From Eledone cirrhosa (lineage: Eukaryota): a stretch of DNA of 64,000 nucleotides. The notes beneath the pieces are model-generated. The model was not told the origin of the DNA and did not search any database. It worked only from the letters and a program-made list of their open reading frames with translations. Each line of letters starts with the position of its first letter. Position 1 is the stretch's first letter. The position numbers and the translations under genes were made by a program. Shown piece after piece: positions 29,072-49,233 of this stretch. The DNA lies in assembly GCA_964016885.1 (NCBI GenBank), contig OZ024754.1, positions 45,756,001 to 45,820,000 of the forward strand, written 5' to 3'.

Positions 29072-29531
29072 ATTTCGTTTCGGAATTTGTTTAGCAAGAT
29101 TCTTTATCTGAAAACGTGTTGAAACCGATATTGTTATGCTTTGGGAGGATCATGTTGCCAATAAGAAACACACGCACCAGTTGCTTTCACTCCAATTTAT
29201 TATAAATTAAATTTATAAATTTCCGGTTGGTTGGTTGGTTGGTTCCACAACCAGACGATTGTTCATATATTGTCAAAGTTCTTTCGTCACACATTCTGTG
29301 ACCTCTTCAGTGACTGGGGATTCTTTTCTTTGTTTACTGAAGAAGTCACAGAATGTGTGACGAAAGAACTTTGACAATATATGAACAATCGTCTGGTTGT
29401 GGAACCAACCAACCAACCGGAAATCTATAAATTCTTAAATTTATAAATTTAATTTATAATAAATTGGAGTGAAAGCAACTGCTGCGTGTGTTTCTTATTG
29501 GCAACATGACCCTCCCAAAGCATAACAATAT
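29072..29531. mobile_element. TA-flanked fold-back element: ~185-195 bp inverted arms, each with a hammerhead core (Penelope-like pseudo-LTR or retrozyme-like)
   Basis: 29128-29311 is the reverse complement of 29337-29531 with few differences. Each arm has CTGAAGA-R-GTCACA(gaatg)TGTGAC-GAAA. Confidence 0.8.
29330..29388 (+). ncRNA. Type I hammerhead ribozyme motif, weak stem III
   Basis: Stem I ttgttta/tgaacaa (7 bp with one G-U), CTGAAGA 29338-29344, 6 bp stem II, GAAA, and an AUA triplet before the 3' arm of stem I. Stem III pairs poorly. Confidence 0.65.
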
Positions 29532-30093
29532 ATATATATATATATATATGTGTGTGTATGTATGTATGAATATATATGTACATTTATGTATATATGTACA
29601 TGTATATGTATATATATGTGTCTGTGTATGTATAGGTTTGCCTGTCTGTGTAACGTATATGAATATATATATATATATAATTGTATAATAAAATATAGAC
29701 AGTGAAGTGGCTAGTTGTTAGACTGACAATAGACAGACACAGAGACTGACATACACACAGACTGACACACAGACATACTGACAGTCAGGCTGACACACAG
29801 ACAGACTGACACACAGACAGATAAAAAGACAGACAGACGAAGAGGCGAATATATATTATTAGACTGATTTATATAAGTTCGTGCTTTCACAAAATTGACG
29901 CCACAATTTCTTTTTAAATACCTGATTGTCAGCAAAGATCGATAAATAATTACATATGATGCACTTAAAGTATGTTCAAGATTCGTCCGTGACCTGGTTC
30001 CAACGATGGTAAACTCTACATAGAGGTAGAATTTCAATTAGTTATCAATAAATATTCTAGAAGGAAATTAATGTAATATAAACAAAAATAGGA

Positions 30094-30475
30094 CAATGTG
30101 TTGAGACAATATTCTACAAGAATCAATGTAGTAGTGATGGGGAAGTTTTCTTTTTAAAAAGAAGGGGGTTTTATATTACTATATTACGTGTTCCAGAATG
30201 GGGGCTGAGGCCAAGCTGAGGCACCGCCATTCTATATATTGATTCATACATACATTTGTGCTGTAGAATATTGTATAGAGTGGAATATATATTAGCGTTA
30301 TTAGCGGGTGACCAGGAAACACAGATTTGAAAGACATAGTAAGCTGCCTAATGTAATTACCCTAATCAGACCATTATATACTACACTGTCTCTATAATAG
30401 GCTACAGTACATACGTATATATGATTCCATATGTAGTAAACCTTGATTCTTGTAGAATATTGTCTCAGTACATTG
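30094..30475. mobile_element. MITE-like element with 33 bp terminal inverted repeats
   Basis: caatgtgttgagacaatattctacaagaatcaa (30094-30126) versus ttgattcttgtagaatattgtctcagtacattg (30443-30475); inner 25 bp perfect, 2 mismatches overall. No TSD seen. Confidence 0.7.
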
Positions 30476-30568
30476 AGTTGTATTGAATACGCACGGGGGT
30501 TCTTCCCCTTTTTTCTCACATTTTCTCTGTCACTTCCTTCCTCTTACCATTCTTTAGTTTCTAACTCT

Positions 30569-30606
30569 ATCTTCTGATGAAGGACTAGTGTCCGAAACGA
30601 TGAGAC
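30569..30606 (+). ncRNA. Minimal type I hammerhead motif (family B) with one core mutation
   Basis: atctt-CTGATGA-A-GGAC(tagt)GTCC-GAAA-CG-AT-gagac. The homologue at 38201-38236 has the canonical CG-TT. Confidence 0.7.
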
Positions 30607-31621
30607 TCTTTTGCTGCTATTGCAAGCTTTAAACTAATATATTTCTTTCATGTACTATGCCGTTTGTTTTATTATTTTTTTTACCATTTATATATATATA
30701 TATATATATATATATAGATATAACATATATATATATATAACATACATAAATGAACAGGTATAGATATATCTATGAGGTGTAAATACATATTTCTATAATT
30801 CAAGAATGTATTACGTACGCCATTCCGCTTCTCTCCGTGTAATTTAATTATCAAAATTTATGCCATTGGCTTATTTTAGTTATTTCCGTTTAGTCATACT
30901 TTTAAATCATACAATGTAACATTGTGATGTATTTTGTGTTAATATATATGTAAAATTCTTTCTACTGATATGTAGATTTGTTAAGATTTTATGTTGTCTG
31001 ACATTTATACTAATCAATGTACGAGTAAACCATGTTAAGTACTCAATACAATAGTGCTATCATGGTGAGACCATGTCGGTATAAGGTACGAAAGATAATT
31101 ACTACCTGTGACTTATTAAAATATACACACACATTCTCTCTCTCACTTACACATACACACACTCTCTCTCTCGCTCTCTCTCTCTCTCTCACTCTCACTC
31201 TCACTCTCACACACACACACACACACACACACACACACACACACACACACACACACACACACACACACACACACACACACACTCACATTTCCTGACTCTG
31301 GAAGAAATCTGCTGTGACTGGATGTGTTCCACCAGGTTTCAAAATGAAAAGATGAGACCCCCTGCAATTCCATTATGATTTACAAGTCTATACATAATCT
31401 TTAGATAGGAAAAAAGCATAATATGCATATTAATATGACATAACACAATATAATGTACTGTAATATGTAACCATGCTGTGACATATTAACTACATGTGTG
31501 TGTATGTGTGTGTCTGTGTGTGTATGTGTGTGTGTGTAACAATATCCGTAGAATATTCTGGTGGTCTGGTGAATATTGGGCCTTGAATTGTTGGGGAGCG
31601 CTTTTGTTCCTTGTATGAACA

Positions 31622-32352
31622 TAAATATATATATATATATATATATATATATATATATATATATATATAATATTATATATATATATATATAATATTATAT
31701 ATATATATATAATATTATATATATATATATATATAATATTATATATATATATATATAATATTATATATATATATATATATATATAATATATATATATATA
31801 TAATATTATATATATATATATATATAATATTATATATATATATAATATTATATATATATATATATAATATATATATATATATATATAATATTATATATAT
31901 ATATATATATAATATTATATATATATATATATAATATTATATATATATATATATATATATATATAATATTATATATATATATATATATAATATTATATAT
32001 ATATATATATATATATATATAATATTATATATATATATATATATAATATTATATATATATATATAATATATATATATAATATTATATATATATATATATA
32101 TAATATTATATATATATATATATAATATATATATATATATATTATATATATATATATATATAATATTATATATATATATATATAATATTATATATATATA
32201 TATATATATATATATAATATTATATATATATATATATATAATATTATATATATATATATATATATATATATAATATTATATATATATATATATATAATAT
32301 TATATATATATATATATATATATATATATATATATATATATATATATATATA
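31622..32352. repeat. (TA)n array with ATAT/TTAT phase shifts
   Basis: Direct reading. Confidence 0.97.
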
Positions 32353-47716: not shown

Positions 47717-47935
47717 ATAATAATGGTCTTTGATTTAGGCACAAGGCCAGCAATTTGGAGAGATCGATAAGTCAGTGGTATCGATCTCACTATTTGACTG
47801 GCACATTATTTTAGAGATCCCAGTAGGGGGATAAGCAAAGTTAATCAAAGCTAGAACTAAAATCCGACTATAAATTACGACAGAAATATCCCAAAATATT
47901 TAACGGATGGTCTATCGATACTAACAAACTACCTT
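47717..47935 (-). mobile_element. Old diverged SINE copy
   Basis: Tail tgatttaggcacaaggccagcaattt and decayed core and head. Confidence 0.6.
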
Positions 47936-48124
47936 AATAATAATAATAGATATTGTAGTATGAAATCTACGTAGTAATATAATATAAATGTATAGATATA
48001 TGTGTGTGAGTATAAATATATAAAAAAAGGAACGATCGACTTTCGTCAAATCGGACCGAGGGAACAATGTTTCCGTTGGTCTTTCCAATTGCTAATACTA
48101 TCTATCGGTCGCAACTCCAGGTAG

Positions 48125-48244
48125 AAGGAGCAACGTGAAATAAAGTGTCTTGCACAAGGACATAACGCATCGCCTGGTCCAGGAATCGAACTCACAACCT
48201 TACGATTGCGAATCCAATTCTCTAACCACTCAGCCACACGCCTT
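48125..48244 (-). mobile_element. CORE-type tRNA-derived SINE (Octopus OR-like), 5' part
   Basis: Minus strand: ggcgtgtggctgagtggttag (A-box) ... gagttcgattcc (B-box) ... gtccttgtgcaagacactttatttcacgttgctc (CORE-like domain). Confidence 0.8.
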
Positions 48245-48571
48245 CACCAAATATACATATATATATGCATATATATGTATAAATAAATATATAGGTGTAA
48301 GTATATATACATATGTATTTCTTATATAAATATACATATATATATTTATATAAATATATATATATATATATGTATATATAATATATATATATAATATATA
48401 TATAATATATATATATAATATATATATATATATAATATATATATATATATATAATATATATATATATATATATAATATATATATATATATATATATATAT
48501 ATATATATATATATATATATATATATATATACGATATTAATAAATGGAAACTATATTTATAAAACCATATT

Positions 48572-48636
48572 TATTTCATTATATATATTTCAAGGATACC
48601 AAGTTACATTATGGTATGCCTTCATCAGACAAAATA
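48572..48636 (-). ncRNA. Type I hammerhead ribozyme, structurally complete
   Basis: Minus strand: tattttgt-CTGATGA-aggcatacca(taatgtaact)tggtatcctt-GAAA-tatata-TA/atgaaata. 8 bp stem I with 2 G-U pairs, 10 bp stem II with one mismatch, palindromic stem III ATATATAT, AUA triplet. Lies in a 185 bp island (48531-48714) between TA arrays. Confidence 0.82.
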
Positions 48637-48713
48637 CAATATATAACAGTTTTATAAATAGACATTGACGTACCCCTTTTAAAAAATTGACCGTTGTTTT
48701 TGGAGACCATCAG

Positions 48714-49233
48714 GATATATATATATATATTATATATATATTATATATTATATATATATTATATATATATTATATATATATTATATATATATTATATATA
48801 TATATTATATATATATATTATATATATATATATATATATATATATATTATATATATATATATATATATATATTAAATATATATTATATATATATATATAT
48901 ATATATATTAAATATATATTATATATATATATTAAATATATATTATATATATATATTATATATATATATTATATATATATATTATATATATATATATATT
49001 ATATATATATTATATATATATATATATATTATATATATATTATATTATATATATATTATATTATATATATATTATATATATATATTATATATATATTATA
49101 AATATATTATATATTATATATATATTATATATATATATATATATATTATATATATATATATATATTATATATATATTATATATATATATATATATATTAT
49201 ATATATATATATATATATATATATATATATATA
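48714..49233. repeat. (TA)n array
   Basis: Direct reading. Confidence 0.97.

Follow-up and report, generated by a model that had tools for sequence, protein, structure and literature searches.

Hammerhead motifs in TA-flanked islands of an Eledone cirrhosa genomic window and their likely origin in Penelope-like elements

Islands and hammerhead motifs in the window

The stretch analyzed here, referred to as the window, comprises 64,000 nucleotides of the 3.0 Gb animal assembly of Eledone cirrhosa (GCA_964016885.1, contig OZ024754.1, C14:45756001-45820000). It abounds in simple repeats, TA and CA among them, and between positions 29072 and 48714 it contains a cluster of short islands set in or against (TA)n arrays, several of which carry hammerhead ribozyme motifs. 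An initial annotation had read the cluster as a candidate retrozyme or mini-Penelope system that targets TA, or alternatively as remnants of the pseudo-long terminal repeats (pseudo-LTRs) of Penelope-like elements (PLEs), which encode a reverse transcriptase (RT) and a GIY-YIG endonuclease. The islands, which themselves have no coding capacity as had been noted, were assigned to families A to F and are presented in Table 1 together with longer copies found at other genomic loci (numbered with the prefix L), some of which contain an open reading frame (ORF); island boundaries carry an uncertainty of a few bases.

A strict type I descriptor was applied to the window with 150 local dinucleotide shuffles as the control. 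Four complete type I folds were obtained against a shuffle mean of 0.15 and a maximum of 1, which confirmed the anticipated excess of motifs, and at each of these sites (the family A pair, C and E, Table 1) CUGANGA, GAAA, UH and stems I-III were all present. In an unselected sample of 59 evenly placed stretches, 10 kb each and 590 kb in total, the same descriptor returned 38 sites compared with 0-2 in 10 shuffles. The core was intact in 28 of 30 E copies and in most of the parsed copies of A, B' and C. Two other sites at which a core had been annotated proved to be incomplete. The family B site keeps the core, stem II and GAAA but fails the descriptor because the U preceding the cleavage site, present in most copies of the family, is altered; stem III is broken. 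At 38201-38236 the copy is cut within the core, so that CUGANGA is missing. The family D sites at 41346-41374 and 42319-42381 are 3' halves, as described originally; long copies at other loci contain the corresponding 5' half, and in these the core is a variant one. A palindromic stem III was seen in B, C and E, with dimer energies of -4.1, -12.5 and -5.2 kcal/mol, respectively (none for A), a feature that predicts weak cleavage, as dimers. Rfam, which had been proposed as a check on the motifs, gave no hammerhead among the 150 of 406 window matches listed, and the complete lists for 29060-30700 and 36600-38460 contained none either; its matches were of microRNA type only, on hairpins and TA runs.

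The association with TA was measured as the presence of (TA)4 within 15 nt of an element end, for which the background is 4.6%. In the unselected sample 62 of 73 ends were flanked in this way, so that the proposed preference for TA is upheld, but B also adjoins CA repeats. Ends of C, D and E in this sample were at (TA)n in 48 of 55 cases, and B was looser, with 42 of 71 ends at TA and 65 of 71 at TA, CA or CATA when all loci were considered.

Table 1. Islands of the hammerhead-bearing cluster, in window coordinates
Position	Strand	Island	Related loci and remarks
29073..29335	-	Family A inverted arm: pseudo-LTR end and ~55 nt tail, hammerhead 29272-29314	Matches parent L185
29336..29528	+	Family A direct arm, truncated at ribozyme core, hammerhead 29330-29379	Parents L185, L039; ends at pseudo-LTR end, adjoining (TA)n
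30484..30689	+	Family B stub (Neptune type), hammerhead 30569-30606, stem III changed	RT fragment upstream in L207; begins ~12 nt past the YY1-type motif of the family
36610..36861	+	Family C stub (Hydra type), hammerhead 36666-36736	ORF in L155, L156, L186, L187; pseudo-LTR end near 36771, then ~90 nt tail with shared hairpin
36892..37007	+	Family D minimal fold-back, ~15 bp arms, ~80 nt tail and shared hairpin	Ribozyme core missing
38115..38231	-	Family B' stub (Neptune type), cut inside core; keeps stem II, GAAA, stem III	Parents L313, L314, L329; 90% to B' vs 82% to B
38352..38450	-	Family F stub: GAAA block upstream of CUGAUGA block	Absent from the initial annotation
41326..41468	+	Island with D-type 3' hammerhead half 41346-41374	Parent L245
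42229..42420	-	Family D fold-back, inversion centre near 42361 inside stem II, tail ~42229-42310	
48532..48717	-	Family E stub (Hydra type), 98-99% to best copies, hammerhead 48572-48636	Parent L151; ends at pseudo-LTR end, adjoining (TA)n

Several further features were observed. An isolated core with stem II and GAAA at 20155-20179, without a full fold and with no match in the unselected sample, is probably an old copy. A short island after a TA run at 33648-33725 resembles the 3' half of a further hammerhead family and had 23 BLAST matches in the sample. A fold-back island at 36351-36570, between TA arrays and with a one-sided tail, has no core in this copy and gave 4 BLAST matches. In the flanks of L048, L111, L123, L124 and L132 there were at least three further PLE families with hammerheads of their own, two Neptune-like and one A-related. 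Copies of an abundant SINE-like (short interspersed nuclear element-like) repeat, putatively octopus tRNA-derived SINEs, lie at 27185-27372, 35889-35977, 39470-39850, 45900-46060 and 47600-47720, one pair being inverted around 39650.

Coding parents and clade assignment

Genome searches for each family gave 476 to 5331 first-look candidates, of which 40 were scored in each case, and all of the listed families were found to be multicopy. The 590 kb sample contained 9 insertions of A, 15 B-like, 4 of C, 14 E-like, 34 of D and 4 of F; by rough extrapolation this amounts to tens of thousands to more than 100,000 copies per genome for each family. In A, C, D and E there are two fixed 3' ends 55-90 nt apart, one being the pseudo-LTR end and the other the tail end; 5' ends are variable, and inverted arms, which are frequent, begin at the other fixed end. 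Longer copies of each of the five listed families join an ORF with RT and GIY-YIG domains, as the alternative of pseudo-LTR remnants had anticipated, and the search for coding parents accordingly succeeded for A, B', C, D and E, and for B at a single locus. An ORF was present within 1.5 kb at 11 of 30 long-copy D loci, and 10 of 30 loci each were ORF-linked for A and B'. Among named relatives, the closest to one of the proteins identified came from Argonauta hians (41% identity).

The E parent L151 has an unbroken frame of 708 residues between inverted pseudo-LTRs which are 98.9% alike. This locus (L151:993-5331, C4:163834900-163839230) is a young E element, 5'-truncated at an inversion, and the N-terminus that it lacks is present in L154. 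For C, broken ORFs were found upstream in L156, L186 and L187 and downstream of a pseudo-LTR in L155, while the D parent L245 has the order pseudo-LTR, tail, inverted piece, broken ORF, pseudo-LTR, tail, TA. The C, D and E proteins are 37-63% identical, C and D having the same RT/GIY-YIG order in broken copies, and the description of the islands as unrelated sequence families is therefore wrong for these three.

Clades were assigned by comparing motifs by eye with the text of Figs. S1-S2 of PMC8557442. C, D and E have a single ORF with RT and C-terminal GIY-YIG domains, as read from motifs, with DKT in place of DKG (E in L151, C in L155, D in L245), and carry RDD and a CxCx5C linker with no CCHH. 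CxxC and CxH around conserved E and N were read in the E and D proteins, and the N-terminal RWK position is RWR in E (L154) and D (L249) and RWI in C (L155). Their RT region matches the Hydra rows of Fig. S1 by eye, and on these motifs C, D and E are read as Hydra-type PLEs. With the Hydra clade of C-terminal endonuclease-containing (EN+) PLEs, including Hydra-1_Obim, as set out in that source, they share the single RT and GIY-YIG ORF, DKT, CxCx5C and the lack of CCHH, as well as the hammerhead near the 3' end, (TA)n insertion, the inverted 5' copy and the tail. They differ from it in tails of 80-90 nt compared with the 30-40 nt given for the clade and, in D, in a non-canonical core; the hammerhead of Hydra-1_Obim is also different, with no exact or one-mismatch match in 373 loci.

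The A parent L185 encodes an RT with YVDD and a CCHH-type GIY-YIG domain (Pfam GIY-YIG, E 5.6e-5), and L039 likewise carries an RT and a GIY-YIG domain of CCHH type. Family A has a CX2-5CxxC linker, a short Nematis-type spacer and CCHH, and its RT4 is unlike the two nematode examples compared; in linker spacing it appears Nematis-like, a placement that is tentative. The B' parents L313, L314 and L329 have the CX2-5CxxC linker with a long spacer, a CCHH endonuclease and a Neptune-type RT4, and B is tied to this type only through the RT fragment in L207; B and B' are on this basis classed as Neptune type. The linker, the CCHH endonuclease and a microsatellite bias are features that B' and A share with the Neptune and Nematis clades as outlined in PMC8557442, where the long spacer and RT4 of B' are those of Neptune and the short spacer of A that of Nematis.

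A hairpin about 10 nt past the pseudo-LTR end is shared by C, D and E, its outer pairs fixed and its inner stem variable. The motif occurred 44 times in the 590 kb sample compared with once for the reversed pattern, and is a candidate signal for the start of reverse transcription. In the window it was seen at ~36779-36806 and 36935-36961, with sample matches in L242-L300, and it is also present in further families.

Variant ribozymes of families D and F

Long copies of D adopt a type I fold with a long stem II (-25.8 kcal/mol, unconstrained -26.0 kcal/mol). Position 8 of the core is A, accompanied by C3 in 27 of 27 parsed among 30 young long copies and paired with U3 in three other copies. U3-A8 is reported as a natural covariant core (PMC4209133); the C3-A8 mismatch would by its sequence predict weak or no cleavage, and together with the long stem II it sets young D apart from the minimal PLE hammerheads described there. 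In 17 of 30 unselected tail-bearing matches the start of the D direct arm falls between -6 and +17 nt relative to a single point, which lies on the 3' side of a hairpin contained in stem II; 3 of the 30 matches extend upstream by at least 90 nt. Inversion centres cluster at the same hairpin while differing in detail, and we infer that cDNA stalls or snaps back there. Another D copy is found at 14224-14414, outside the cluster.

The idea that D is a self-contained element of 145 nt was dropped in view of the long copies and coding parent present in the unselected sample. Pattern searches for the 5' half of D were unproductive: a canonical pattern gave 1225 matches, 25 fetched loci of which were an unrelated repeat, a tighter one gave 8, of which 7 had the same text as that repeat, and a gapped one gave 24, in most of which D adjoined another element or its own inverted arm. 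The gapped matches are no evidence for template jumps onto other ribozymes because the pattern forces junctions near the core.

With a pattern built for the purpose, nine longer copies of F (L004, L026, L027, L096, L097, L182, L227, L272, L365) showed the permuted block order S, G, C, with 5-7 of 7 pairs in stem I and 5 of 5 in stem III, and compensatory changes in L272. This is the order of the type-SGC hammerheads of PMC10085705, likewise with stems I and III paired. No pairing was seen by eye for a direct stem II between blocks G and C; in eight of the nine copies an upstream strand pairs 4 of 4 with the C-block side and so appears to bridge stem II, unlike the type-SGC motifs as presented in that report. 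The window copy at 38352-38450 has neither the cleavage-site block (S) nor the bridging strand, and the S, G, C order is not found in it.

Origin of the islands

We consider it very probable that the islands are 3' ends, truncated on the 5' side and often inverted, of five or more coding PLE families of this genome, likely written into (TA)n by the endonuclease and RT of the elements themselves. Following published PLE work, the GIY-YIG domain would nick AT-rich DNA on both strands and cDNA synthesis would start internally at two sites, giving the tail and the head-to-head arms; most copies would stop early, each island being an abortive insertion. The ribozyme would travel with the pseudo-LTR as a passenger, since its distance from the ends is no more than ~10-150 nt. 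D copies would stop and fold back at the hairpin inside their long stem II, and B copies at their YY1-type motif. PLE insertions are reported to be heavily 5'-truncated and often to have a tail as well as an inverted 5' copy; nearly all Hydra families are listed with (TA)n insertion and canonical hammerheads, Hydra-1_Obim of Octopus bimaculoides with both (PMC8557442). A purified PLE protein has been described to nick and extend both strands of AT-rich DNA and to start reverse transcription at two internal sites bracketing the tail, ribozyme cleavage being unneeded in vitro (PMC11167929). The minimal PLE hammerheads of Cervera and de la Pena 2014 (PMC4209133) are likewise of type I with a short palindromic helix III and an extra base between 9 and 10.1; opposite-strand pairs, 100-700 bp apart, were already noted there, as were single motifs, the majority, tied to truncated PLEs. 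The ribozyme motifs and the TA association of the window are real and, families B and D with their fixed stopping points aside, mostly ordinary, being explained by known PLE clades with new families at most, and at the level of clades the suggested novelty is largely lost while the ribozyme call stands.

A number of observations weigh against this origin. An ORF within 1.5 kb was found for only 1 of 30 E and 1 of 28 C search loci, which we ascribe to long 3' untranslated regions, and for none of 30 short D copies upstream; B was ORF-linked at 1 of 60 loci (L207), which is itself internally deleted. Pfam found no RT or GIY-YIG family in the E protein, and the clade calls depend on motifs compared by eye and not on a tree against reference elements.

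Were the islands animal non-LTR retrozymes, that is, ribozyme monomers that encode no protein and are propagated by PLE enzymes via circular RNA, the type I hammerheads, the lack of coding capacity and the high copy number would be as expected, and published retrozymes share with the islands both the hammerhead type and a link to PLE pseudo-LTRs. As characterized in PMC7229834 and bioRxiv 10.64898/2026.07.22.740005 they are tandem non-coding monomers expressed as circular RNA, whereas the islands have coding parents and occur as single or inverted stubs: no tandem array of 200-400 nt hammerhead monomers, or of island-length period, was found in 29072-48714, each family continues into a PLE ORF, and island ends are set by the pseudo-LTR and the tail and not by the cleavage site. 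This origin is highly improbable, the coding parents already refuting most of it, and the proposal of a retrozyme or novel mini-Penelope system was not supported. It is also unlikely, if somewhat less so, that the TA association is secondary, with broad insertion followed by the seeding or addition of microsatellite from TA-rich ends. Element sequence does pass into TA at each of the two fixed ends, runs of CA or CATA are frequent after B, and no convincing target-site duplication is visible for B; against this, TA stands on both sides of most short D copies, different families are stacked within the same arrays, and (TA)n is the insertion preference given for nearly all Hydra families by Craig 2021 (PMC8557442).

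Only B, with a fixed 5' start and coding sequence upstream at a single locus, keeps a case for non-autonomous spread. Its 5' ends pile up at a YY1-type motif, with 31 of 57 distinct copies starting within 10 nt of it and 19 of 27 in a search with a motif-bearing query; five starts below -40 (L075, L190, L201, L203, L208), which look like CA-run or stray matches, were kept in these counts. The motif matches the YY1 site which begins mammalian L1 and sets its start (PMC5381506); in B it probably marks an internal transcription start. At L213, near 1500, two B copies lie head to head, both from the motif, with a short TA run between them. B, and perhaps the short D fold-backs, could thus be SINE-like, a self-promoted solo pseudo-LTR copied in trans by the enzyme of the parent clade, an idea that we regard as possible but doubtful. 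It is favoured by this pile-up, by the contrast in ORF linkage between B and its sister B', whose version of the motif seems degenerate on visual inspection, and by the promoters reported for pseudo-LTRs (PMC6765202). Copies longer upstream would score equally, yet only L192 and L207 clearly extend past the motif; that they do so counts against the idea, and L192, with a mean identity of 92%, ranks among the most central copies, the pattern to be expected from a single master shared by stubs and long copies. Moreover, A has a similar motif, yet its starts, 29 in number, are scattered between -400 and +37, one of the B search queries itself began at the motif, and inversion centres of D vary between copies, which fits independent events. 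An earlier view of B as an element without a parent was dropped on account of the Neptune-type parents of B' and the RT fragment in L207.

Taken jointly, it may tentatively be proposed, with no greater assurance, that B is a SINE-like mini-Penelope of ~230 nt with its own YY1-type promoter, its hammerhead kept, copied in trans by Neptune-type enzymes to tens of thousands of sites, and that stem II of D is a built-in RT stop and fold-back point which yields the commonest stub in the sample despite the mismatched core of the young subfamily. Neither the fixed 5' start of B, by which it differs from the Neptune and Nematis PLEs as described, nor the stem II stop of D was found in a search of the literature, Repbase and Dfam being outside this comparison.

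By extrapolation from the 590 kb sample the genome would hold roughly 190,000 strict-descriptor sites, mostly PLE stubs, and such stubs would explain a large class of apparent orphan ribozymes. The young E family with its unbroken frame and D with its natural core mismatch offer material for the question of whether PLE hammerheads must cleave, and both also bear on the determinants of where PLE reverse transcription starts and stops.

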